IMG/VR virus record: IMGVR_UViG_2861043448_000001
Strand: one strand, 5' to 3'
Origin: a virus
Lineage: Duplodnaviria > Heunggongvirae > Uroviricota > Caudoviricetes
Length of the DNA stretch: 22,628 nt
Under the pieces are notes generated by a model. It saw only the letters and a list, made by a program, of their open reading frames with translations. It made no database searches and was not told where the DNA came from. The position numbers and the translations under genes are program-made. Each line of letters starts with the position of its first letter. Position 1 is the stretch's first letter. Below, one piece after another: positions 4,416 to 21,692 of this stretch.

Positions 4416-4600
4416 TGTGCACATCCTTTTGGCATCAGACGTAAACGAGCCAGCATTGAAACAATGCATATTTTATTTAATAGCTCCCGTTCTTGTTTTC
4501 TCTTGTTAATGGCATCTTCAGTAAATACAGGGTTACTGATAGTGACACCAATTTCAAAACAACCTTCAGACGTATTAACGTTTGGTAATAACGTTTTCAT
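4412..4600 (-). CDS. Small early-left peptide, possibly a Kil-like host division inhibitor
   Basis: 62-codon ORF with gagga 7 nt upstream of its ATG. It is the first gene of the leftward operon. The Kil assignment rests on recollection of similar prophage annotations and is not verified. Confidence 0.45.
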   Translation of the reverse strand: MKTLLPNVNTSEGCFEIGVTISNPVFTEDAINKRKQERELLNKICIVSMLARLRLMPKGCAQ

Positions 4601-4652
4601 TATCGCGTCCTCAACAATGAATTTTGTGATGCAGTGCCTGGTGCCTCCAGGT

Positions 4653-4679
4653 GACGTTAACCAGTTAACAATTAACGTC
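4653..4679. promoter_or_regulatory. Candidate operator: perfect 8-bp inverted repeat containing three (G)TTAAC units
   Basis: The sequence gacGTTAACcaGTTAACaaTTAACgtc lies in the ~300-bp gap between the divergent leftward (kil) and rightward (replication) genes. Confidence 0.4.
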
Positions 4680-4743
4680 GGATATCCGGATTAGTGATTT
4701 CAGGTTGTATCGTGAGATCAGTGATGGAAAAAGTATTACGTAC

Positions 4744-4926
4744 ATGATCGCCGGGTTAAATAAAGAATATGGCGATGTGGTGGAATCCGGACTGCTTTTT
4801 GCAGATCCTGCCGTTGTAGATCGTGAAACTGACGAACTTATAGAAAAAGCAATTGCTTTCAAGCTTGCGTATCGACAGCAATACCAACAAAAAGCTGGAT
4901 GGAATTATGAGTCTTCTTTTTGCTGA
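4744..4926 (+). CDS. Hypothetical small protein or remnant upstream of the replication gene
   Basis: The ATG at 4744 lies inside the 73-codon track ORF, which itself starts at TTG 4705. The ORF overlaps the replication-gene start by 20 nt. No recognisable motif and no clear SD. Confidence 0.25.
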   Translation: MIAGLNKEYGDVVESGLLFADPAVVDRETDELIEKAIAFKLAYRQQYQQKAGWNYESSFC

Positions 4927-5872
4927 ACGCCCACTGGTTATAAACACGCAGCTGGCAATGAAAATTGGCTTAAACGAAGCCATTGTTTTGCAACAACTGC
5001 ACTACTGGTTGAGAGATACCAACTCCGGCATGGAATGTGATGGTGTTCGCTGGATTTATAACACAACGGAACAATGGCTGGAACAGTTCCCATTCTGGTC
5101 AGAGTCAACGTTAAAGCGCGCGTTTGCAAGTCTGAAAACGCTGGGGCTTTTGCGTTGTGAAAAGCTCAATAAATCAAAGCGCGATATGACCAATTTCTAC
5201 ACGATCAACTACGGGAGCGAGCTTTTAGATGGTGGCAAATTGAGCGAATCCATCGGTTTAAAATGCGCCGCTCCATCAGGTCAAAATGACACGATGGAAG
5301 AGGTCAAAATGAAACGCTCCATTGGTTCAAAACGACTCAATGTCATCGGGTCAAAATGGCCTGATGATCTTACAGAGAATACAACAGAGATTACTACAGA
5401 GAATAAAAAGACTTCTCGTCCGGAAGCTTCGCAACCGGACCCGCAGACGGTTGAACAGGATTTTTTAACCCGACACCCTGACGCGGTTGTGTTCAGTGCG
5501 AAAAAACGCCAGTGGGGCAGCCAGGAAGATTTGGCGTGTGCGCAGTGGATCTGGGGGCGAATCGTGAGTCTTTACGAGCAGGCCGCCAGCGATGATGGCG
5601 AGATTTCGCGACCGAAAGAACCCAACTGGACCGCATGGGCCAACGACGTGCGCACAATGCGGATGCTGGATGGCAGAACTCACAGACAAATTTGTGAAAT
5701 GTTTGGTCGGGTGCAGCGGGATCCATTCTGGGTAAAAAATATCATGAGTCCGTCAAAGCTTCGCGAAAAATGGGATGAACTGGTTATCCGCCTGGGGCGT
5801 TCGTCTGTACAGCGTTGTGTGAATCATATTTCTGAGCCGGATACCGAAATTCCGCCGGGCTTCAGGGGGTAA
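4907..5872 (+). CDS. Phage replication initiation/replisome-organiser-like protein
   Basis: ATG 4907 is preceded by ggatgg; the track start at 4853 is a TTG. The N-terminal region resembles a winged helix (LNEAIVLQQLHYWL...STLKRAFASLKTLGLL). The C-terminus reads FWVKNIMSPSKLREKWDEL, which I recall from phage replication proteins. The gene sits first in the rightward early block. Confidence 0.7.
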   Translation: MSLLFAERPLVINTQLAMKIGLNEAIVLQQLHYWLRDTNSGMECDGVRWIYNTTEQWLEQFPFWSESTLKRAFASLKTLGLLRCEKLNKSKRDMTNFYTINYGSELLDGGKLSESIGLKCAAPSGQNDTMEEVKMKRSIGSKRLNVIGSKWPDDLTENTTEITTENKKTSRPEASQPDPQTVEQDFLTRHPDAVVFSAKKRQWGSQEDLACAQWIWGRIVSLYEQAASDDGEISRPKEPNWTAWANDVRTMRMLDGRTHRQICEMFGRVQRDPFWVKNIMSPSKLREKWDELVIRLGRSSVQRCVNHISEPDTEIPPGFRG

Positions 5873-5912
5873 GTGTTAATTTCTGGTCATGAGGTAATTT
5901 TCAGGAGGGCTT

Positions 5913-6464: not shown

Positions 6465-7409
6465 TCACAACCAGCCGACGCTCTCTCGCCATTTATAATT
6501 AGTAACTTTATCATTTTCGCTTATTTTTTTAGATATAGAGCGCGGCTCTCTTCCTAGATACTCAGATATTTCTATCGGGGACAAATCAAAATCAACAAGC
6601 ATGACTCTAAGTTTTTCCATTTCCTTTAAAGTCCAAGGCTTGCCATAATTTTCATAAAGAGATACCTTATGCTCCCTGATAGTTCGCTTTCTCTGAGTTT
6701 CACTTTCCCTCTGAAAAATCTCGCTTTTAAATTGTGAACGGAACTCTTTACAGAAGTTGTTATCAGTTTTTTTGTTATATAGATTGCTAAAAATAAGCTG
6801 GGATGCCGGGTCTAAATCAGGTGTGTTAATAATGAAAACTTTGACCTTTTCCATATAGGGATATTCAATTTTACCCAATATGCTTAATTGCTTTATATTA
6901 AAAAAACCTCTCAAATCAAAAGATTTAATGAGCTTTGATTGGATTACACTTTCAATCCTGCTTGCATTTAAATAACAGTACTTTGCCATTGGAAGGGCCC
7001 ATACTACCAGTTGAGGAATATATTTTTCTAATGCAATGCTCTGCCAATCAGTATCAAAGGTTTGGCTTTTTGCTAGCATGTTTTTCGGCAAATCAGAATA
7101 CATTGTGGTAGATGCCCATATCTTATAATCATTCGCCAAGGCTTGATAGTATTTTGTGTGGTTATGAATTTTATAAGCTGACATGAAGCGATAAACGTCT
7201 TCGTCGTGACCAGCGTCGTAAATTGTTCGATTTCCTCTAAGATAACCGTCGTAATGTTCGGTTATCCTTCTACCTACATTACAACTTACCCCAACGTAAA
7301 CCACACGACTGAAAAGTCCTTTATGGACAATAAGATAAACTCCGCTACAGCCAGATTTCCTGGCCTCTGATAGAGAACCTAAAAATCTCCATTCCATAAT
7401 TAAATCCAT
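6465..7409 (-). CDS. GIY-YIG family nuclease with a C-terminal helix-turn-helix-like domain
   Basis: 314-codon ORF. The N-terminus reads GVYLIV-x9-VVYVGVSCNVGRRITEHY (GIY...YVG...R..H pattern), with a later glutamate in SRIESVIQ. The C-terminus reads PWTLKEMEKLRVML..SPIEISEYLGREPRSISKKI, which looks Myb/HTH-like. The gene is AT-rich. Confidence 0.8.
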   Translation of the reverse strand: MDLIMEWRFLGSLSEARKSGCSGVYLIVHKGLFSRVVYVGVSCNVGRRITEHYDGYLRGNRTIYDAGHDEDVYRFMSAYKIHNHTKYYQALANDYKIWASTTMYSDLPKNMLAKSQTFDTDWQSIALEKYIPQLVVWALPMAKYCYLNASRIESVIQSKLIKSFDLRGFFNIKQLSILGKIEYPYMEKVKVFIINTPDLDPASQLIFSNLYNKKTDNNFCKEFRSQFKSEIFQRESETQRKRTIREHKVSLYENYGKPWTLKEMEKLRVMLVDFDLSPIEISEYLGREPRSISKKISENDKVTNYKWRESVGWL

Positions 7410-7956: not shown

Positions 7957-9306
7957 TTATTCCGTTTTACATATCATAGTAGTCGATTGGAGAATATAGT
8001 TTCTGGGAATGTACTCTTCAAAGTGTTCGTCCTTTTTAAATACATGAACTACATTTGGGAATAATTGATAGTCAACAGGGTGTATAGCGTTTGGATTATG
8101 GTACATGTACATGGCTGTACACCATGGTTCTTGATAGTTAGGGTCACTTACATCGGCTGAAAATGGATGTGGGGCTGCATCCTGATCAGTTTTAACACCA
8201 CTGACGTACACTTTGAATCCACTCGCCTCTACACCTGCAAGAATTCCCATCCGGTTAAACTTAGGTATGGTTGCTTGAGTAGTGAGTAAAACGGCAGAAA
8301 CATAATTATTTTGTTCTGAGCCAAAAAAGTTCGACTTGATACTTCTATTTTCATCTGTATGTCTTTCAATAGAAATGCCTGACTCAATATCAATCCCGTA
8401 CAAATAGCTATGCAAGGCTTCGCTTGAGAAGGCCATGGACATTCTTTTTGAATAATCCTGCATTGCTATGACAAATGGTTTGTTCTTTGTATGGTTGAGT
8501 TCCCAGTAATGAACTTTCTCTGGCTCAGGGCAATGCCGGACTTTTTTTAATAAACTTCTTGCAAACTTAAAAGGCATGACATTTAGAACATGTTTTCTTA
8601 ATTCATCCATCTGTTCATCGTTAATGACTTTTCTTTCAAGAGGGGCTTCTGCTTCAGCAATGCTTACAGCCTCTACAGCAATTTCCACTCCAAATTTAGA
8701 TAGCAGAAAATCTGGTTGATTGTATTCTCTATTCATTTCAAAGTCGAGTTCATAAAATACAGCGTTCAAATATAATTCAAATAACCTTGAATTAAATGCA
8801 TCACTTTGAAAATCCCTTATAAATATTCCATCAGGATCTTTGAACCAGTATGCAAGTTCCTCAAGAACAATATATGCAGGGAAATGAAGAGGGTCTTCGA
8901 GGAGCATTTTTATATAAACATTCCTTTTTTTCGCTGGGACCTTACTCAAGAATAATGAAAAAGGTTTGGTTGATTCATCGCCTTGCATGAATGTACCATT
9001 TTGGTGCTGCGCCAGCATCTTTGGTATGTCATCGTTCAAATTATTAAGCAAGACATCCATTGAATCAAATGAAGCCAAGACGTTTATTGCTCTGAATTTT
9101 TTATCTAAATCCCGACCTAAGACTATTGCGTTAAAATCTTTATCAATATTGCATATGATTATTGTGGATAACAATGTTATCCCATTCCCCTCATATTTAA
9201 ACCAGCGTATCTCCTCAGAAAATGTCTTAAGGTAAGGTGAGCGACCGTAAAAATAAATATCAAATTGTTCTTTGCTGATCTCACTGAAGTGTAATCCTGC
9301 GTTCAT
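7957..9306 (-). CDS. Orphan 449-aa protein; a possible degenerate PD-(D/E)xK-like core; function unknown
   Basis: Long AT-rich ORF with aagga 8 nt upstream of its ATG. The segment FELYLNAVF...NQPDFLLSKFGVEIAVEAVS resembles a helix-E / PD / ExE arrangement but lacks a clear lysine. I recognise no other motif. Confidence 0.75.
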   Translation of the reverse strand: MNAGLHFSEISKEQFDIYFYGRSPYLKTFSEEIRWFKYEGNGITLLSTIIICNIDKDFNAIVLGRDLDKKFRAINVLASFDSMDVLLNNLNDDIPKMLAQHQNGTFMQGDESTKPFSLFLSKVPAKKRNVYIKMLLEDPLHFPAYIVLEELAYWFKDPDGIFIRDFQSDAFNSRLFELYLNAVFYELDFEMNREYNQPDFLLSKFGVEIAVEAVSIAEAEAPLERKVINDEQMDELRKHVLNVMPFKFARSLLKKVRHCPEPEKVHYWELNHTKNKPFVIAMQDYSKRMSMAFSSEALHSYLYGIDIESGISIERHTDENRSIKSNFFGSEQNNYVSAVLLTTQATIPKFNRMGILAGVEASGFKVYVSGVKTDQDAAPHPFSADVSDPNYQEPWCTAMYMYHNPNAIHPVDYQLFPNVVHVFKKDEHFEEYIPRNYILQSTTMICKTE

Positions 9307-9587: not shown

Positions 9588-9626
9588 CATACTCAAATCT
9601 CCCACATTGCAGGAGATTTGAGTATG
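9588..9626 (+). promoter_or_regulatory. Perfect 15-bp inverted repeat (catactcaaatctcc-N9-ggagatttgagtatg) enclosing the recombinase SD and ATG
   Basis: The right arm contains GGAG (9612-9615) and the ATG at 9624-9626. It could be an RBS-sequestering hairpin in read-through transcripts, or a lox/FRT-style core site. Confidence 0.65.
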
Positions 9627-10226
9627 AACACGTCACCGTGGAACAAAGACCGTATCATAGGCCAAAAAAGACCACTTCAGATATCTCATATCTGGGGTAT
9701 CCGAATCCGACTTGAACTGGAAGGTAAAACTCGCGATTTAGCTCTGTTCAACATGGCCCTGGATAGTAAGCTTCGAGGCTGTGATCTGGTCAAACTCAAA
9801 GTATCTGATGTTGCATATGGTGGCTCTGTTTCAAGCAGAGCAACGGTGTTGCAACAGAAAACCGGTAGCCCTGTTCAATTTGAGATAACCAAAGGGACAA
9901 GAGAAGCTGTTGCTGCATTGATACAGCTTAGCAATTTGCACAGTAAAGACTTCTTGTTTCGGTCTAGGGTCGGAACTAACCAGCACATTTCAACCCGGCA
10001 ATACAACCGAATCTTTCATGGGGGGGTAGAAAAGCTTGGTCTCGAAGATTCGCTTTACAGCACACATTCCATGAGAAGAACAAAACCTTACCTGATCTAC
10101 AAGAAAACCAAGAATCTCCGGGTGATCCAACTTCTGTTGGGTCATAAGAAACTGGAAAGCACAGTCCGTTATCTGGGCATTGAAGTCGATGATGCGTTAG
10201 AGATTTCTGAATCGATTGAAGTCTAA
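9624..10226 (+). CDS. Mini tyrosine recombinase (catalytic domain only, ~200 aa)
   Basis: Catalytic signature occurs in order: DSKLRGCDL (R), LQQKTG (K), HSMRRT (HxxR), LLGHKK (H), VRYLG (Y). The ATG at 9624 sits 8 nt after aggag. The track start at 9618 is a TTG. Confidence 0.85.
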   Translation: MNTSPWNKDRIIGQKRPLQISHIWGIRIRLELEGKTRDLALFNMALDSKLRGCDLVKLKVSDVAYGGSVSSRATVLQQKTGSPVQFEITKGTREAVAALIQLSNLHSKDFLFRSRVGTNQHISTRQYNRIFHGGVEKLGLEDSLYSTHSMRRTKPYLIYKKTKNLRVIQLLLGHKKLESTVRYLGIEVDDALEISESIEV

Positions 10227-10585: not shown

Positions 10586-11566
10586 ATGAAATTTAAGGAC
10601 AAGAACCTTAAGGCTCTCGCGGAATGTATCATAGGAGATAATAAGGCATTTCTGTATCGTTCAAGCAGTCACATCACTGAATTTTTCCAGGACTGCGGCA
10701 TGGATGTTACTCATGACGGATCCACTCGGTGGAAATGGACGGCCCAGAGGCTTGAAGAACTTCTTTATGAGCCACAGTCAAAGCCACATACTTTGCCGGA
10801 AAGGTTTGTTCATGTGCTCAGAACTTTAATGTTAAAAGAAGATGCAATGGATGACGATCCAGGAAGATTAAAGGCGCTTGAAGAACTGAACAAGCCTTTG
10901 ATGCGGGAAGGCTATGAGGCATTCTATGGTGACGATCGCCTTTTGTATATACGCCATACCGATACCAAAACGGTTTCAGTCAGTAATAACCCTCATCGGC
11001 CCTTAACGCCTCACGAAGTAGAATGCAGAAGGTTACTGACCGCGTTTCTTGATACCTGCTCAGAAGATGAGTTAATAGAAGATATTCTCCTTCCTTTATT
11101 CCGGCAACTTGGTTTTCACCGGATAACAGCAGTGGGACATAAAGATAAAGCGCTGGAATACGGGAAAGACATCTGGATGAAGTTCACACTGCCAACTCAG
11201 CATGTTCTTTATTTCGGCATTCAGGCAAAAAAAGGTAAGTTGGATGCGTCCGGTGCCAGCAAATCTACGAATTCAAACGTGGCAGAAATCTTCAACCAGG
11301 TACTGATGATGCTTGGCCATGAAATATTTGACCCAGAAACAAATAGAAAGGTGCTGGTAGATCATGCCTTTATCGTTGCTGGCGGAGAAATTACTAAACA
11401 GGCGAGGAACTGGCTGGGCGGGAAACTTGATGCCAGCAAAAGAAGCCAGATAATATTTATGGACCGGGAAGACATTCTTAATTTATATACTGTAAGTAAT
11501 GTACCTCTGCCAACAGGTGCTCTCATCTCTGATGATGCCGTTAAGAACGATGATATTCCTTTCTAA
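10586..11566 (+). CDS. Two-domain protein: unknown N-terminal domain plus C-terminal Mrr-like restriction-endonuclease-fold (D...QxK) domain
   Basis: 326-codon ORF with a gagggggag SD. The C-terminal half reads ELIEDILLPLFRQLGFHRITAVGH..EYGKDIWMKF..LYFGIQAKKGK...AFIVAGGEITKQA. This matches the Mrr_cat layout of helix, G-x-D-I, then (Q/E)xK. Confidence 0.75.
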   Translation: MKFKDKNLKALAECIIGDNKAFLYRSSSHITEFFQDCGMDVTHDGSTRWKWTAQRLEELLYEPQSKPHTLPERFVHVLRTLMLKEDAMDDDPGRLKALEELNKPLMREGYEAFYGDDRLLYIRHTDTKTVSVSNNPHRPLTPHEVECRRLLTAFLDTCSEDELIEDILLPLFRQLGFHRITAVGHKDKALEYGKDIWMKFTLPTQHVLYFGIQAKKGKLDASGASKSTNSNVAEIFNQVLMMLGHEIFDPETNRKVLVDHAFIVAGGEITKQARNWLGGKLDASKRSQIIFMDREDILNLYTVSNVPLPTGALISDDAVKNDDIPF

Positions 11567-12119: not shown

Positions 12120-12171
12120 TGCTGCGGGTGCTTGAGGCTATCTGCCTCAGGCATGAACACCAAAGGCAGAT

Positions 12172-12246
12172 AGAGAAAAGCCCCAGTTAACATTACGCGT
12201 CCTGCAAGACGTTTAACATTAATCTGAGGCTCAATCTATGAACGGC
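12172..12246 (-). ncRNA. sok: Sok-like antisense RNA of the hok locus (ends approximate)
   Basis: The minus strand has TTGCCT-17 nt-TAACCT (plus-strand coordinates 12281-12276 and 12258-12253). The predicted transcript covers the mok start region and folds into a long imperfect hairpin ending ctggggcuuuucucu. This matches the R1 hok/sok layout. Confidence 0.5.
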
Positions 12247-12450
12247 AAATCTAGGTTAGCCTCTTACGTGCCGAAAGGCAAGGAGAAGCAGGCTATGAAG
12301 CAGCAAAAGGCGATGTTAATCGCCCTGATCGTCATCTGTTTAACCGTCATAATGACGGCACTGGTAACGAGGAAAGACCTCTGCGAGGTACGAATCCGAA
12401 CCGGCCAGACGGAGGTCGCTGTCTTCACAGCTTACGAACCTGAGGAGTAA
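12238..12450 (+). CDS. mok: Mok-like reading frame (in-frame N-terminal extension of Hok)
   Basis: 70-codon ORF containing the Hok sequence, as in the chromosomal mokC/hokC arrangement. Confidence 0.6.
   Translation: MNGKSRLASYVPKGKEKQAMKQQKAMLIALIVICLTVIMTALVTRKDLCEVRIRTGQTEVAVFTAYEPEE
12295..12450 (+). CDS. hokD: Hok/Gef family type I toxin (closest to my recollection of HokD/RelF)
   Basis: MKQQKAMLIALIVICLTVIMTALVTRKDLCEVRIRTGQTEVAVFTAYEPEE is the classic Hok signature. An aggag SD lies at 12281-12285. Confidence 0.9.
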   Translation: MKQQKAMLIALIVICLTVIMTALVTRKDLCEVRIRTGQTEVAVFTAYEPEE

Positions 12451-14325: not shown

Positions 14326-14700
14326 ATGCTCATAGATTTGGTTTTACCTTACCCGCCGACGGTGAACACTTACTGGCGACGCCGTGGCAGCACATATTTT
14401 ATCTCGGAGGAGGGAAAGCGTTATCGCCGGGCTGTGGCGCTTATTGTTCGCCAGCAGCGGCTGAAATTAAGCCTGTCCGGAAGGCTGGCGATAAAGGTGA
14501 TTGCAGAGCCACCGGATAAGCGTCGTCGCGACCTGGACAATATCCTGAAAGCACCGCTGGATGCGCTGACGCATGCGGGAGTGTTAATGGACGATGAGCA
14601 GTTTGATGAAATCAATATCGTTCGTGGTCAGCCAGTATCTGGTGGACGTCTGGGGGTGAAGATTTACCCCATAATGCATGAAGAGCAGGTCAAAAAATGA
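14326..14700 (+). CDS. rusA: RusA-family Holliday junction resolvase
   Basis: 124 codons. Contains YPPTVNTYW and PDKRRRDLDNILKAPLDALTHAGVLMDDEQ, which are RusA catalytic-region signatures. Confidence 0.9.
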   Translation: MLIDLVLPYPPTVNTYWRRRGSTYFISEEGKRYRRAVALIVRQQRLKLSLSGRLAIKVIAEPPDKRRRDLDNILKAPLDALTHAGVLMDDEQFDEINIVRGQPVSGGRLGVKIYPIMHEEQVKK

Positions 14701-15518
14701 AACTGGAAGATTTACCGAAATACTACTCCCCAAAATCCCCTGGCCTGACCGATGCATCGGCCTCAACGTCAAAAGATGCGCTGAGTATCACTGATGTGAT
14801 GGCCGCGCAGGGCATGACACAGAATCGGGCTGAGATGGGTTTTTCTGCGTTCCTGGGGAAAATGGGCATCAGTATGAATGACAGGGCGCGGGCAACAGAA
14901 TTACTGGCAGATTATGCACTCAGTCGGTGCGATCGTGTGGCGGCGTTGAGAAAGCTTCCGGCAGAAATAAAACCGGTAGTGATGCGCATTATGGCTTCGT
15001 ACGCTTTTGAGGATTATGCCCGCAGCGCAGCGAGTAAAAAGCAGTGCCCTTGTTGCTATGGGGAAAAATTTATTGAAAGCGTAGTTTTTACAAACAAGGT
15101 CCAGTATCCGGATGGTAAGCCGCCGGTATGGGCAAAGTGTACGAAAGGTGTGTATCCGTCTTACTGGGAAGAATGGAAAAAAGTCAGGGAGGTGGTAAAA
15201 GTTGCCTGTCCGGAGTGTGGCGGAAAGGGTGAGGTTTCCACCGCCTGTAAGGATTGCCGTGGGCGTGGTGTCGCCATTCATCGTGAAGAGTCGGTAAAAC
15301 GTGGTATGCCTGTTATCAGAGACTGCCAGCGTTGTGGTGGTCGTGGCTATGAAAGACTACCATCAACGGAGGCATTTAATGCTATATGCGAGGTGACAAA
15401 CCAGATAACACGCGCGTCATGGGAAAAAACAGTTAAGAAATTCTATGATGCGCTGGTGACCCGGTTTGATATTGAAGAAGCATGGGCTGAGCGGCAGTTA
15501 AAAAAGGTAACTAGGTAA
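14697..15518 (+). CDS. Late-gene antiterminator Q (zinc-finger-rich type)
   Basis: 273 codons, coupled to rusA by an ATGA overlap. Carries CPCC, CPECGGKGEVSTACKDCRGRG and CQRCGGRG motifs. Followed directly by a PR'-like promoter and terminator. Confidence 0.8.
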   Translation: MKLEDLPKYYSPKSPGLTDASASTSKDALSITDVMAAQGMTQNRAEMGFSAFLGKMGISMNDRARATELLADYALSRCDRVAALRKLPAEIKPVVMRIMASYAFEDYARSAASKKQCPCCYGEKFIESVVFTNKVQYPDGKPPVWAKCTKGVYPSYWEEWKKVREVVKVACPECGGKGEVSTACKDCRGRGVAIHREESVKRGMPVIRDCQRCGGRGYERLPSTEAFNAICEVTNQITRASWEKTVKKFYDALVTRFDIEEAWAERQLKKVTR

Positions 15519-15523
15519 CAAGG

Positions 15524-15566
15524 TTGATTTTTCCGGAATCTGTGGTAAATTCGTCATAACGATGGG
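15524..15566 (+). promoter_or_regulatory. PR'-like late promoter with a promoter-proximal pause / qut-like element
   Basis: TTGATT (15524-15529), 16-nt spacer, extended -10 TGgTAAATT (15543-15551). The sequence cataACGATGGGcg then resembles lambda tcaACGATGGGtt, the sigma-dependent pause. Confidence 0.65.
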
Positions 15567-15598: not shown

Positions 15599-15622
15599 AA
15601 CCCGCCGCCGAGCGGGTTTTTT
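15599..15622 (+). terminator. tR'-like rho-independent terminator
   Basis: Stem cccgc-cgccga-gcggg followed by tttttt. It lies about 45-65 nt downstream of the predicted PR' start. Confidence 0.8.
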
Positions 15623-15661
15623 ATTGCGGAATTAATTATGGACCGTTATTATTCTGCTCCC

Positions 15662-15737
15662 GGCCCTTTAGCTCAGTGGTGAGAGCGAGCGACTCATAAT
15701 CGACAGGTCGCTGGGTCAAATCCAGCAAGGGCCACCA
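15662..15737 (+). tRNA. tRNA with CAU anticodon, ileX/ileZ-like (Ile2 or Met); weakened anticodon stem and unusual T-loop
   Basis: Cloverleaf fits: acceptor GGCCCTT/AAGGGCC, D-arm GCTC..GAGC, loop CTCATAA, encoded CCA. However, 27:43 and 28:42 are mismatched and the T-loop starts with G (GTCAAAT). Confidence 0.6.
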
Positions 15738-15738
15738 A

Positions 15739-15815
15739 CCGTCACCAGTTCATCAGGAAAGAGCGTCAACCCTTTAAGTTGAGTGTGCGAGGTTCGAGTC
15801 CCCGGTGGCGGTCCA
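15739..15815 (+). tRNA. tRNA-like gene, anticodon loop CCTTTAA (nominally Lys-UUU with C33); possibly a pseudo-tRNA
   Basis: Acceptor CCGTCAC/GTGGCGG with one G-U pair. T-loop TTCGAGT, with one T-stem mismatch. C replaces the near-universal U33. CCA is encoded. Confidence 0.45.
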
Positions 15816-15817
15816 GT

Positions 15818-15893
<76 letters not shown>

Positions 15894-15896
15894 TAT

Positions 15897-15971
<75 letters not shown>

Positions 15972-16178
15972 GTTAGAGTCTTTCAGTCTGCGATGATGGG
16001 AAATCCCGGAGTGACTGAAAGACGTTTAAGTTATGAATGATCGCTTTTTTTTGCAAAATTGCTGTGCAGAAATACTAACCTTCGGGCAGGCGATCATTCA
16101 TAAGCACTCTGCTTTTATTCCGATTAACTGTGGGTGGTTTGTTGGATAGAGTGCTTTCCTTACTGTATATATTGTTTC

Positions 16179-16203
16179 GCCCGCTTTTGCGGGCTTTTCT
16201 TTT
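16179..16203 (+). terminator. Rho-independent terminator upstream of the holin start
   Basis: Stem gcccgc-tttt-gcgggc followed by ttttctttt. Confidence 0.75.
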
Positions 16204-16263
16204 CAAATCCCTTTCATTTCTCAGTGTAAAACTACGCCATCCGTTATTTGCGGAGGTGAGGCT

Positions 16264-18426
16264 ATGAAATCCATGGACAAAATTTCAACGGGCATTGCCT
16301 ATGGCACCTCCGCAGGCAGTGCTGGCTACTGGTTTTTACAGCTGCTCGATAAAGTCACGCCCTCACAGTGGGCAGCAATAGGTGTGCTGGGTATCCGCAC
16401 CGGCGGGCGCGTGCTGGCGGTAAACAGCCAGACCCGGACGCTGACGCTCGACCGTGAAATCACGCTGCCATCTTCCGGCACCACGCTGATAAGCCTGGTT
16501 GACGGGCAGGGGAGTCCGGTCAGCGTGGAGGTTCAGTCCGTCACCGACGGCGTGAAGGTGAAAGTGAGCCGTGTTCCTGACGGCGTTGCTGAATACAGCG
16601 TATGGGGGCTGAAGCTGCCGACGCTGCGCCAGCGCCTGTTCCGCTGCGTGAGTATCCGTGAGAACGACGACGGCACGTATGCCATCACCGCCGTGCAGCA
16701 TGTACCGGAAAAAGAGGCCATCGTGGATAACGGGGCGCACTTTGACGGCGACCAGAGCGGCACGGTAAATGGTGTCACGCCGCCAGCGGTGCAGCACCTG
16801 ACCGCAGAAGTCACCGCAGACAGCGGGGAATACCAGGTGCTGGCCCGCTGGGACACGCCGAAGGTGGTGAAGGGCGTGAGCTTCCTGCTTCGCCTGACCG
16901 TGGCAGCGGATGACGGCCGTGAGCGGCTGGTCAGCACGGCCCGGACGACGGAAACCACTTACCGCTTCACACAACTGGCTCTGGGGAACTACAGGCTGAC
17001 AGTCCGGGCAGTAAATGCGCGGGGGCAGCAGGGCGATCCGGCGTCGGTATCGTTCCGGATTGCCGCACCGGCAGCGCCGTCGCGGATTGAGCTGACGCCG
17101 GGCTATTTTCAGATAACCGCCACGCCGCATCTTGCGGTTTATGACCCGACGGTACAGTTTGAGTTCTGGTTCTCGGAAAAACGGATTGCGGATATCAGGC
17201 AGGTTGAAACCAGCGCGCGTTATCTTGGTACGGCACTGTACTGGATAGCCGCCAGTATCAATATCAAACCGGGCCATGATTATTATTTTTACGTTCGCAG
17301 TGTGAACACCGTTGGCAAATCGGCATTCGTGGAGGCTGTCGGTCAGCCGAGTGATGATGCATCAGGCTATCTGGATTTTTTCAAAGGCGAGATAGGGAAA
17401 ACCCATCTGGCTCAGGAGCTGTGGACGCAGATTGATAACGGTCAGCTTGCGCCTGACCTGACTGAAATCAGGACGTCCATAACGGATGTCAGCAATGAAA
17501 TAACACAGACCGTCAATAAGAAACTGGAAGACCAGAGTGCAGCGATCCAGCAGATACAGAAGGTTCAGGTTGATACAAATAATAACCTGAACAGCATGTG
17601 GGCAGTGAAGCTGCAGCAGATGCAGGACGGACGCCTTTATATTGCGGGTATCGGTGCCGGTATTGAGAACACCCCTGACGGCATGCAGAGTCAGGTGCTG
17701 CTGGCAGCAGACAGGATTGCGATGATTAATCCTGCGAATGGCAACACAAAGCCGATGTTTGTTGGTCAGGGCGATCAGATATTCATGAATGAAGTGTTCC
17801 TGAAACGCCTGACGGCCCCCACCATTACCAGCGGCGGTAATCCTCCGGCATTTTCCCTGACATCAGACGGGAGACTGACGGCGAAAAATGCGGATATCAG
17901 TGGCAGTGTGAATGCGAACTCAGGAACGCTCAACAATGTCACGATTAACCAGAACTGTACGATTAAGGGCATGCTGGAGGCGACCCAGGTCAGAGGAGAT
18001 TTCGTTAAAGCTGTATCAAAAGCCTTCCCGAAAAAAGTCGGTACGTGGGGTAACACGGAAACACCAAACGGTACGGTTACAGTAACCATCAGCGATGATC
18101 ATAACTTTGACCGCCAGATTATTATTCCGCCCATTATTTTTAACGGTATAGCGTATGACGATCCGGGGAGCGGAAATAACCCAGGAGGCACGCGATACAC
18201 GGGTTATGGTTTTGAAGTTCGCAAAAACGGCGTATTAATCGCATCCAGAGAAACTAAAGGGGCCATTCCCGGTAGTTACAGTGCAGTTATTGATATGCCG
18301 AGTGGCAGGGGAAGCGTCACTCTGGAGTTTAAGATTTTCCAGAAAGGCAATCAGGGGGCAGGCAATATCACCGACTGTACGGTGATTGTGACCAAAAAAG
18401 CGGCTTCCGGCATCAGTATTCGTTGA
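16264..18426 (+). pseudogene. Deletion-generated fusion: holin 5' end (43 codons) joined in frame to the C-terminal ~677 residues of tail-tip/host-specificity protein J
   Basis: Residues 1-43 ([43 protein letters not shown]) match Stx-phage-type holin N-termini. From residue 44 onward ([29 protein letters not shown]...[17 protein letters not shown]...[36 protein letters not shown]) the sequence matches lambda J. The junction is at about 16392/16393. Confidence 0.85.
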
Positions 18427-18496: not shown

Positions 18497-18892
18497 ATGC
18501 GTAAAGTTTGTGCAGCAATTTTGTCCGCAGCCATTTGTCTGGCCGTATCCGGTGCGCCTGCATGGGCGTCTGAACATCAGTCCACGCTGAGCGCGGGGTA
18601 TCTTCATGCCCGGACCAACGTTCCCGGCAGTGATGATCTGAACGGGATTAACGTGAAATATCGTTATGAGTTTACGGATACGCTGGGGCTGGTGACGTCA
18701 TTCAGCTATGCAGGAGACAAGAATCGCCAGCTGACCCGTTACAGCGATACCCGCTGGCATGAAGATTCCGTGCGTAACCGCTGGTTCAGCGTGATGGCGG
18801 GGCCGTCTGTGCGCGTGAATGAATGGTTCAGCGCGTATGCGATGGTACTGGTGGAAGAACTATCGAGCAAGCACGTGCGAACTTGCGGGTAA
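18497..18892 (+). pseudogene. lom: Truncated lom (Ail/Lom outer-membrane protein), intact to about codon 116 and then an out-of-frame tail
   Basis: Signal peptide MRKVCAAILSAAICLAVSGAPAWA plus GINVKYRYEFTD...RWFSVMAGPSV..SAYAM parallel lambda Lom, which is ~206 aa. Similarity ends at about 18845, followed by 16 unrelated codons. Confidence 0.8.
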
Positions 18893-20655
18893 TGTATGAG
18901 CAAAAAGCTGGCCTTGCTAATACTGACCTAAACACCCTTACCGGTGAATATTCTGGTTTCTATCAACAACCAACGAGCGCTTACGCAACAGAAGAGTTAA
19001 ATTACCCAATCGGTCTGGCGGGCGCTTTAATAGTGCTCCAAACGAGAGCCAACACTGCTTCTTCCTGCGTTCAGGTGTACCACCCTTATAATAATCCGGG
19101 AATTACTTATAGACGAATATATGAAGGAGGTAGCGGTACCTGGTCTGAATGGAAGAGAGATGTATCAACAGAAAGGGTTGAAGAGGGAAAAGAAACAACT
19201 TACGTATATTCTACGTATTCTTCAGGCGCACCACGCTTACAGGTTTCCAAATCTGGTTTGTGGGGTTGTCATAATGGCACTGGCTGGTTGCCATTAGCTG
19301 TTGGGCAAGGAGGTACAGGTGCGACAACAGTAGAAGATGCGCGAAACAACTTAAGTCTTGGCGAAAGTAGCGCAGTTAAATTTAAAAACCTTACTTTAAC
19401 CGAAGCGCTCGACACGACATTAGGACTGCTTACAAAAACAGGACGAGACTGGAACACGCAGCATACTGATAACATTAATAAATTTATACCAATTGCAGGC
19501 AGTACAAACGGCCCGGCAGGCTCTATGGTTCTTGGCGGCATTCATGTTCAATTTAGTAAAAATTATGCTGTGCAGTTCGGAGGCCGCAATTCCGGTTTTT
19601 GGGGAAGAACAATTGAAAATGGAACGACACAGGAATGGAAGAAATTACTAACAGTAGACGATCTCAATTCATCTACCGATCTTGCTGTCAGGTCATTAAC
19701 CACATCTAACCCGGTAAAATCTGGCGGAGGGCGAATTGATGTCCTTGGAAGCACGTCAGACTATAGCAAAATGGATTGCTTTGTACGTGGGTTTGATAGC
19801 ACCGGTAATTCTCTCGTGTGGGCGTTGGGTTCATCAGTCGGCGTAAGTAAGATGCTATCGCTAAAAAATTTCTTTAGCGGAGCTGAGATACTGTTAAATG
19901 GTAATGACGGCGCGGTTCAACTCAAAACAGGTGCTGTTAACGGGGCTACAGCGCAGACGCTCACTATCAACAAGAATGAGGTTAACTCAACCGTTGATTT
20001 AACCCTTACAAAGCAATCAGGGACTGGTAATCGTTTTGTTTTACAGAACTCAGGTAATGCAGAACTACCGTTTTCTGTCAGGGTGTGGGGTTCCAGTACT
20101 CGACAAAACGTTTTTGAGGTTGGAACGTCTGCTGCGTATCTGTTTTATGCGCAAAAAACGTCAGCAGGCCAGTTGTTTGATGTAAATGGCGCTATTAATT
20201 GCACAACGCTGAATCAGTCATCAGACCGCGACCTTAAAGACGATATTCTCGTTATCAGCGACGCGACGAAAGCAATCCGTAAAATGAACGGATACACCTA
20301 CACGCTCAAGGAAAACGGGATGCCTTATGCTGGCGTTATTGCACAGGAAGTAATGGAGGCGATACCAGAAGCTGTGGGATCGTTTACTCATTATGGTGAA
20401 GAGTTGCAAGGTCCGACCGTTGACGGCAACGAGCTACGCGAAGAAACTCGCTATCTTAATGTTGACTACTCCGCCGTGACGGGTTTACTTGTTCAGGTCG
20501 CCCGTGAAACAGATGATCGCGTTACCGCGCTGGAAGAGGAAAACACAACGCTACGTCAAAATCTGGCAACAGCAGGCACCCGGATCAGCACTCTGGAAAA
20601 TCAGGTAAGCGAACTGGTTGCACTTGTCCGGCAGTTAACAGGAAGCGAACATTGA
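18823..20655 (+). CDS. Distal part of a side tail fibre with a C-terminal S74-type intramolecular chaperone domain; its native 5' end is missing
   Basis: Fibre-like sequence starts at about 18844 (GTGGRTIEQARANLRV). The ATG at 18823 lies inside lom in another frame. The C-terminus reads SSDRDLKDDILVI..AIRKMNGYTY...YAGVIAQEVMEAIPEAV...VDYSAVTGLLVQVARE followed by a coiled coil, which is the auto-cleaving chaperone signature. Confidence 0.75.
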   Translation: MVQRVCDGTGGRTIEQARANLRVMYEQKAGLANTDLNTLTGEYSGFYQQPTSAYATEELNYPIGLAGALIVLQTRANTASSCVQVYHPYNNPGITYRRIYEGGSGTWSEWKRDVSTERVEEGKETTYVYSTYSSGAPRLQVSKSGLWGCHNGTGWLPLAVGQGGTGATTVEDARNNLSLGESSAVKFKNLTLTEALDTTLGLLTKTGRDWNTQHTDNINKFIPIAGSTNGPAGSMVLGGIHVQFSKNYAVQFGGRNSGFWGRTIENGTTQEWKKLLTVDDLNSSTDLAVRSLTTSNPVKSGGGRIDVLGSTSDYSKMDCFVRGFDSTGNSLVWALGSSVGVSKMLSLKNFFSGAEILLNGNDGAVQLKTGAVNGATAQTLTINKNEVNSTVDLTLTKQSGTGNRFVLQNSGNAELPFSVRVWGSSTRQNVFEVGTSAAYLFYAQKTSAGQLFDVNGAINCTTLNQSSDRDLKDDILVISDATKAIRKMNGYTYTLKENGMPYAGVIAQEVMEAIPEAVGSFTHYGEELQGPTVDGNELREETRYLNVDYSAVTGLLVQVARETDDRVTALEEENTTLRQNLATAGTRISTLENQVSELVALVRQLTGSEH

Positions 20656-20835
20656 TATCCTTCAAGCCCTGAAGGAGGCTGTTCCTGGTACGTTCAGACT
20701 GTTGTTGAGCTGGAAATCGCAACGGAGGAAGAAACTTCGTTGCTGGAAGTCTGGAAGAAGTATCGGGTGTTGCTGAACCGTGTTAATACAACAACTGCAC
20801 CGGATATTGAATGGCCAGTAGCACCTATAGGGTAA
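20656..20835 (+). pseudogene. Tail-fibre assembly (tfa) 3' remnant
   Basis: It encodes ...[36 protein letters not shown], a typical Tfa C-terminus. There is no start codon. It is in frame directly behind the fibre stop codon. Confidence 0.7.
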
Positions 20836-20881
20836 ATTCGTAATGATTACCTAAATACGTTATTCTGGTAATGACTCCAAC

Positions 20882-21385
20882 TTACTGATAGTGTTTTATG
20901 TTCAGATAATGCCCGATGACCTTGTCATGCAGCTCCACCGATTTTGAGAACGACAGTGACTTCCGTCCCAGCCTTGCCAGATGTTGTCTCAGATTCAGGT
21001 TATGCCGCTCAATTCGCTGAGTGTAACGCTTGCTGATTACGTGCAGCTTTCCCTTCAGGCGGGATTCATACAGCGGCCAGCCATCCGTCATCCATACCAC
21101 GACCTCAAAGGCCGACAGCAGGCTTAGAAGACGCTCCAGTGTGGCCAGAGTGCGTTCACCGAATACGTGCGCAACAACCGTCTTCCGGAGCCTGTCATAC
21201 GCGTAAAACAGCCAGCGCTGGCGCGATTTAGCCCCGACGTATCCCCACTGTTCGTCCATTTCCGCGCAGACGATGACGTCACTGCCCGGCTGTATGCGCG
21301 AGGTTACCGACTGCGGCCTGAGTTTTTTAAATGGCGGAAAATCGTGTTGAGGCCAACGCCCATAATGCGGGCGGTTGCCCGGCAT
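20882..21385 (-). CDS. insB: IS1 InsB reading frame (expressed as InsAB' by a -1 frameshift)
   Basis: 167-codon ORF inside IS1, overlapping insA. Confidence 0.9.
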
Positions 21386-21579
21386 CCAACGCCATTCATG
21401 GCCATATCAATGATTTTCTGGTGCGTACCGGGTTGAGAAGCGGTGTAAGTGAACTGCAGTTGCCATGTTTTACGGCAGTGAGAGCAGAGATAGCGCTGAT
21501 GTCCGGCGGTGCTTTTGCCGTTACGCACCACCCCGTCAGTAGCTGAACAGGAGGGACAGCTGATAGAAACAGAAGCCAC
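21304..21579 (-). CDS. insA: IS1 InsA transcriptional inhibitor
   Basis: 91 codons. The sequence [40 protein letters not shown] is the canonical InsA zinc-finger N-terminus. Confidence 0.95.
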
Positions 21580-21692
21580 TGGAGCACCTCAAAAACACCA
21601 TCATACACTAAATCAGTAAGTTGGCAGCATCACCGTTATTCTTTTGTTCAAAAAGTGATTTTGCTATAGGTAGGGAGTATGTTCTTGGATTA

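Follow-up and report, generated by a model that had tools for sequence, protein, structure and literature searches.

The open reading frame (ORF) at positions 16264-18426 (+) of the stretch of DNA analysed here (22,628 nucleotides, hereafter the window) is an in-frame fusion of the beginning of a holin gene to the end of the tail-tip gene J, and we consider it, with a probability of roughly 90%, to be an inert deletion scar in a defective lambdoid prophage that occupies the Qin site in one clonal group of E. coli. The ORF begins with ATG and encodes 720 amino acids before its stop codon. An earlier note, made by reading the sequence alone, had proposed that an in-frame holin::J fusion marks a large internal deletion, and in respect of parentage, junction and extent our analysis bears this out.

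We propose that one illegitimate recombination event at a GGTA tetranucleotide would have joined codon 43 of the holin to codon 488 of J, with the loss of approximately 18.6 kb that would have included the pore-forming part of the holin, the endolysin, the spanin, the terminase, all of the head genes, and the tail genes up to and including the first 42% of the J protein. Such a deletion would have abolished both lysis and virion production, fixing the element in the chromosome, while the reading frame would have been kept by chance. That the fused ORF is still open may be because the deletion is recent.

The N-terminal part of the fusion is a holin remnant

The first 43 codons (16264-16392, +) are the 5' remnant of a class II holin of the phage 21 S/EssD type, in agreement with the earlier assignment of these codons to a holin N-terminus. 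Residues 1-43 match Pfam family PF04971 (phage 21 holin S) with an E value of 2.6e-19, and the fusion scores 69.4 bits against a Pfam gathering cut-off of 26, the match covering only profile positions 1-39 of 64. All 43 residues are identical to residues 1-43 of the intact 71-aa EssD holin. The remnant retains the dual-start motif of class II holins (Met1 for the antiholin and Met4 for the holin, within MKSMDK, which is the same in EssD and in the holin of the intact relative described below), a SAR-type first transmembrane domain (TMD1), the inter-helix loop LDKVTPSQ, and the first 8 residues of TMD2. The Shine-Dalgarno sequence of the holin gene was also said to be retained, and GGAGGT can indeed be read in the sequence at 16252-16257 (+), 6 nt before the ATG.

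In these features the fusion is the same as the phage 21 S pinholin and EssD. It differs from them in that the alignment to EssD stops 8 residues into TMD2, and the charged C-terminal tail is missing. Thus both the two-TMD architecture that defines this class of holin and its pore-forming helix are absent from the fusion. Nor is there a lysis cassette, since J sequence follows directly after the holin remnant, whereas YdfR, lysozyme and Rz are present in the intact relative.

The remainder of the fusion is the 3' end of J

The rest of the ORF (16390-18426, +) is a 3' remnant of J, identified by its Pfam domains, by an ungapped alignment to the intact 1165-aa J of a locus that we designate L003, and by comparison with lambda J structures. 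Residues 43/44-720 of the fusion align without gaps to residues 488-1165 of the L003 protein, with 65 differences in 2034 nt, and this half also aligns to lambda J from about residue 488 to residue 1131 (residues 487-1131 in comparison with the structure 8iyk and others). Codon 44 onward had been described as collinear with the C-terminal ~60% of lambda J, and the figure that we obtain is 58%. Four Pfam domains are found in the fusion, in the order Ig_J, Ig_J_second, Phage_Tail_Tip and Ig_GpJ_C, the last being receptor-binding (E values from 3e-42 to 2e-25), and these are the same four C-terminal domains as in lambda J (PDB 8iyk).

Identity to lambda J is 92.5% over fusion residues 44-391, 66.7% over residues 421-561 and 38.6% over the last 159 residues; residues 392-420 are a 29-residue insertion relative to lambda J. 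In phages mEp332 and PhiR68_2 the J protein ends in exactly these 159 residues (100% identity), and the J end of mEp460 matches them at 95-96%. It was therefore correct to state, as the earlier note did, that the C-terminal ~150 residues are unlike the receptor-binding end of lambda J. A literature search for the receptor of J ends of the mEp332/mEp460 type returned nothing usable.

Apart from the insertion and its receptor-binding end of the mEp332/PhiR68_2 type, the fusion differs from lambda J in lacking residues 1-487, that is, the FNIII-A and Phage-tail_3 hub that builds the tail tip. Pfam finds neither of these domains in the fusion, whereas the intact J of L003 has both (residues 86-207 and 330-498); FNIII-A is absent from the remnant altogether, and Phage-tail_3 has been almost entirely lost. 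Tail genes M, L, K and I, which lie upstream of J both in L003 and in the intact relative described below, are likewise absent from the window. A product with neither TMD2 of the holin nor the tail-tip hub domains of J would therefore be capable of neither holin nor tail-tip function.

An antisense ORF of 304 codons (16363-17277, −) overlaps the J remnant and most likely owes its existence to the composition of J.

The junction lies within a 4-nt microhomology

The holin parent (the EssD allele) reads GTGCTG-GGTA-GCC and the J parent reads TATGCC-GGTA-TCC, while the window reads GTGCTG-GGTA-TCC. In a search with a 60-mer over the junction, matches to holin alone end at 16393 (16396 if one mismatch is allowed) and matches to J alone begin at 16390. 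The crossover falls within the four nucleotides GGTA that are common to both parents, at 16390-16393 (codon 43, GGT for glycine, being likewise common to the two), and the previous estimate of a junction at about 16392/16393 agrees with this position. A microhomology of at least 4 nt is expected by chance at ~1.6% of random junctions (about 0.016). The bases flanking GGTA differ between the parents, and the BLAST segments for the two sides overlap by only 7 nt.

Such a junction fits an illegitimate deletion mediated by microhomology, and we take this to be the probable mechanism. As in other microhomology-mediated (RecA-independent) prophage deletions, a short tetranucleotide lies at the breakpoint, a large segment of the late genes has been lost, and neither an IS element nor a long repeat is found at the breakpoint. 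Nothing distinguishes the present deletion from these save that the frame was kept, an outcome with a one-in-three prior for a random join.

The extent of the deletion was defined by alignment to an intact relative. Strain GPEC1366 carries a prophage with the same gene order, which runs from Q through the tRNAs, a 71-aa holin, YdfR, lysozyme, Rz, HNH, terminase, portal, protease and capsid genes to the connectors, the tail genes, J, Lom, the tail fibre and Tfa. Window positions 15644-16391 correspond to positions 17119-17866 of this relative (97.5% identity), and window positions 16385-17958 correspond to its positions 36509-38081 (94% identity). In the coordinates of the relative the deletion amounts to 18,648 bp, a multiple of 3, and spans the 3' end of the holin gene, 24 whole genes for lysis, packaging, head and tail, and the first 487 codons of J. 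The loss had previously been deduced from the gene order of lambda; the order stands, but the type of gene does not, given that the head genes of the closest relative are of the HK97 type.

The exact holin allele was not found in intact form when complete genomes were searched with a chimeric query composed of that allele, its expected 3' end and ydfR; only relatives of the GPEC1366 type were retrieved, at 97.9% identity. The true content of the lost segment is thus predicted from relatives that are 94-97.5% identical over the matched stretches flanking the junction.

An alternative to deletion within one prophage is that the junction arose by recombination between two lambdoid prophages, or between a prophage and an incoming phage, such that the two halves never belonged to one element. 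Material for such an exchange is plentiful, as E. coli genomes typically have several near-identical copies of J (at a median of 2 places per genome), and the prophages of other strains contain J copies up to 100% identical over 408 nt. There is also mosaicism, in that the phage most similar to the Q module is not the one most similar to the tRNA-holin module. However, a junction at which only 4 nt are shared is not a homologous exchange. Furthermore, the ends of the element are as expected of a single prophage: the integrase end lies at rspB and the tail-fibre/tfa end at ydfJ, in normal lambdoid order and with the usual neighbours of the Qin site, and no chromosomal rearrangement accompanies the junction. 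We therefore regard an origin from two prophages as highly improbable, and favour a single internal deletion.

Distribution of the junction and its annotation

Of 5,426 complete E. coli genomes, 110 carry the identical junction, once in each. In 108 of these 110 carriers the whole 20.9-kb element is ~100% identical, suggesting that the event occurred once and was inherited. Among public contigs, 490 encode exactly this 720-aa protein, under the name 'host specificity protein J' or 'hypothetical protein'.

These counts bear on whether the fusion is real. The earlier note had allowed that it might be an assembly error, or that its first 43 residues might be native to a variant of J with a holin-like N-terminus. 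The same junction in 110 independently assembled complete genomes, in addition to the 490 contigs, rules out the former. As to the latter, the 43 residues are those of EssD and stand behind the holin's own upstream region, whereas an intact J has 487 other residues in this place, with FNIII-A and Phage-tail_3 domains and no match to PF04971. Both readings are refuted by the genome count, the identity to EssD and the domains of intact J, and the chance that the fusion is an artefact is negligible.

The feature is already known, in that RefSeq (PGAP) annotates both of its halves as pseudogenes: 16264-16392 as 'phage holin, incomplete, missing C-terminus', and 16390-18426 as 'phage tail tip domain-containing protein, incomplete, missing N-terminus'. 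The type of event is familiar also, and is ordinary prophage decay. The fusion is of little importance beyond annotation, where the database name 'host specificity protein J' covers only part of a chimeric pseudogene. Nevertheless, this single junction accounts for the inability of the Qin-site prophage either to lyse its host or to make particles, and with one identical breakpoint in ~2% of complete E. coli genomes it provides a clean lineage marker. The J remnant also keeps a complete alternative receptor-binding end that lambdoid phages could in principle recover by recombination. On a modest reading, the remnant might be merely a recombination reservoir for infecting lambdoid phages, as cryptic prophages are already known to be.

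Signals upstream of the fused ORF

Upstream of the fusion lies a gene for a Q-type late antiterminator of 273 aa (14697-15518, +), which appears intact (Pfam PF03589, Antiterm, E 6e-55). In RefSeq the gene is labelled 'antitermination protein', and the Q region of phage mEp460_ev081 matches it at 99.2% identity. The late promoter PR' of lambdoid phages lies immediately downstream of Q, and in this position we identified by eye a candidate PR' at 15524-15551 (+), with the hexamer TTGATT, a 16-nt spacer and TGg-TAAATT; a consensus promoter scan did not list this candidate, which scores 8 of 12. It is plausible that the fused ORF stands behind PR'; the interval from Q to the ORF contains a tRNA cluster and two terminator-like hairpins. 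The first of the hairpins, a candidate tR' at 15599-15618 (+), has a 7-pair stem that includes 5 G-C pairs and is followed by a T-run (TTTTTATT). The second, GCCCGC-TTTT-GCGGGC followed by a T-run, is at 16179-16194 (+) and ends 70 nt upstream of the start codon of the fused ORF; it is found also upstream of the intact holin in GPEC1366, within the stretch that matches window positions 15644-16391 at 97.5% identity.

The tRNA cluster (15662-15971, +; ARAGORN, Rfam and PGAP) comprises a tRNA with a CAT anticodon (Met according to ARAGORN, Ile according to PGAP), a doubtful Lys-TTT, Thr-TGT and Gly-TCC, so that ARAGORN counts four tRNAs, three of which are supported by Rfam and PGAP. The tRNA-Lys (TTT) at 15739-15815 (+), between the CAT and Thr tRNAs, comes from ARAGORN only, and is reported neither by the Rfam tRNA model at its gathering score nor by PGAP. 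The homologous cluster of phage PhiR47_1 is annotated with a tRNA-Lys.

The same tRNA-holin arrangement is present in the viable phages PhiR47_1 and vB_EcoS-689R5, at 95.6-96.3% identity. As viable phages share the layout of Q, tRNAs and holin, the fused ORF does occupy a late-operon position. No single record in the phage collection covers at least 80% of the whole stretch from Q to the holin. The annotation of the element includes no cI/cro region, and Q is thus left with no known driver. We infer that the fused ORF is probably not expressed. Against the view that it is an inert scar, its 720 open codons, strong Shine-Dalgarno sequence and dual start, together with the intact Q and the plausible PR', would make expression conceivable on the evidence of the sequence.

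Could the fusion be a working protein?

One alternative to an inert scar is that the chimera is a working protein, in which the SAR-type, weakly hydrophobic TMD1 would tether or export the trimeric receptor-binding part of J, and which could either be toxic when Q is active or modulate phage adsorption or superinfection. The open frame of 720 codons with its Shine-Dalgarno sequence and dual start speaks for such a protein, as do the intact Q gene and the plausible PR' upstream. So too does the nature of the J half: its receptor-binding end is the same as in mEp332 and PhiR68_2, both of them viable phages, and structures are available for isolated C-terminal pieces of J, 166-428 aa long (8jvm, 8xcj and 9wca). 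The J remnant could therefore fold and bind its receptor, if it were made.

The holin half argues against this reading. TMD1 of phage 21 S ends with the aromatic patch YWFLQW; the loop LDQVSPSQ comes next, and then TMD2 (bioRxiv 10.1101/2021.04.20.440580; PMC7278021). In the fusion, Y22-L27 is the aromatic patch and L28-Q35 the loop, LDKVTPSQ, so that TMD1 and the periplasmic loop are whole; TMD2 starts at W36, and all that is left of it is W36-G43 (WAAIGVLG), followed by 10 residues that include two arginines. The earlier note had the holin break within its first transmembrane region, at AIGVLG, but this motif belongs to TMD2. TMD2 of phage 21 S is both necessary and sufficient for pore formation (bioRxiv 10.1101/2021.04.20.440580), and TMD1 leaves the membrane when the holin is activated (bioRxiv 10.1101/2021.04.20.440580; PMC7278021).

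By Kyte-Doolittle hydropathy averaged over 19 residues, the best window of the fusion reaches 1.0 and that of the intact holin 1.58, with ~0.7 for TMD1. With TMD2 broken and only the weakly hydrophobic TMD1 kept, a membrane-anchored product, as the earlier note had envisaged, is therefore unlikely: the strongly hydrophobic helix has been destroyed (1.58 to 1.0), and the segment that is kept is the one that exits the membrane. We would not expect the fusion to provide a stable membrane anchor.

We also considered toxicity of the holin type through the fused ORF, and rejected it, as it would not be expected where the pore-forming TMD2 is destroyed.

Several further observations argue against a working chimera. 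The retention of the frame has a prior of one in three, and the neighbouring Lom::tail-fibre junction does not keep the frame. The ORF comes after two terminator-like hairpins, and the element has no annotated repressor or early-promoter region that could drive Q. Moreover, a J receptor-binding domain located in the cell or the periplasm would be on the wrong side of an outer-membrane receptor. Taken with the loss of the pore-forming helix and with a TMD1 whose hydrophobicity averages only ~0.7 and which is known to exit the bilayer, these points make it very unlikely that the chimera is functional.

One specific form of this proposal is that TMD1 acts like the SAR domain at the N-terminus of SAR endolysins, with Sec-dependent export followed by later release of a trimeric J fragment of the mEp332 type. 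We find this hardly credible. Were it true, a decaying prophage would have accidentally made an envelope-located protein that binds a phage receptor, which could affect superinfection or the function of the receptor.

The surrounding element and its decay

The reading of the fused ORF as an inert scar sits within an element that is defective in other respects. The window is a piece of E. coli chromosome with a defective lambdoid prophage, and is 99.99% identical to the corresponding region of strain UK_Dog_Liverpool, apart from a copy of IS1. In the RefSeq annotation of that strain the element lies between rspB and a 5'-truncated ydfJ, which is the Qin site, and includes genes for an integrase, an excisionase and an exonuclease, ydfD, dicB, hokD and rem, and genes for a DUF968 protein, RusA and the Q antiterminator. 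The insertion between rspB and truncated ydfJ, in combination with dicB, ydfD, hokD and rem as annotated there, identifies a Qin-site defective prophage.

The Qin prophage of E. coli K-12, which is inserted in ydfJ and carries dicB, ydfD, hokD, rem and essQ, provides the obvious comparison. The two have in common the chromosomal site, dicB, ydfD, hokD with sok, rem and an antiterminator of the Q family, and both are lambdoid prophages made defective by internal deletions. They differ in what was deleted: K-12 Qin has kept the whole EssQ holin and lysis cassette and lost J, whereas in the present element the lysis cassette is gone and the 3' 58% of J remains. The present element also has a PD-T7-1 defence gene, and is without DicF and the dicA/dicC region. 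The Qin-like prophage 042p4 of EAEC 042 was considered for comparison; it appears complete and belongs to a different and larger genome, and was not applied to this locus.

The immunity region, at 4600-5900, seems to have been deleted, with dicB and ydfD kept and a 5'-truncated pseudogene at the spot. The annotation shows no gene like cI, cro or ydaT between these positions, nor does Rfam detect DicF. In GPEC1366 the immunity position holds ydfABC, a LexA-family repressor, Cro and YdaT.

Downstream of the fusion, RefSeq annotates three further pseudogenes: a 5' remnant of Lom (18497-18844; positions 1-119 of 199 of Ail_Lom), the 3' remnant of a tail fibre with an S74-peptidase ('pyocin knob') domain (18844-20655), and the tail-fibre assembly gene tfa, of which only a 3' fragment is left (20704-20835). 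The junction of Lom to the tail fibre, at ~18844, does not preserve the frame. At least two internal truncations beyond the holin::J deletion (Lom::fibre and tfa), along with the IS1 insertion, represent the usual stepwise decay of a prophage.

The IS1 copy, at ~20867-21634, matches DDE_Tnp_IS1 with an E value of 3e-75 and has a 9-bp target duplication. As it is absent from the otherwise identical region of UK_Dog_Liverpool, the insertion is strain-specific.

Two accessory modules of the element are also worth recording. A sok antitoxin RNA (12126-12300, +; Rfam RF01794, 111.7 bits) lies beside hokD; the prophage thus seems to have kept its hok/sok module intact. The 449-aa protein encoded at 7957-9306 (−) matches the anti-phage defence protein PD-T7-1 (PADLOC PDLC04073, E 7e-157), and forms part of a cargo islet inside the prophage. 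The other ORFs of this islet are at 6465-7409 (−), 9618-10226 (+) and 10586-11566 (+), the neighbours of the defence gene being two ORFs without a Pfam match and a 202-aa integrase fragment.
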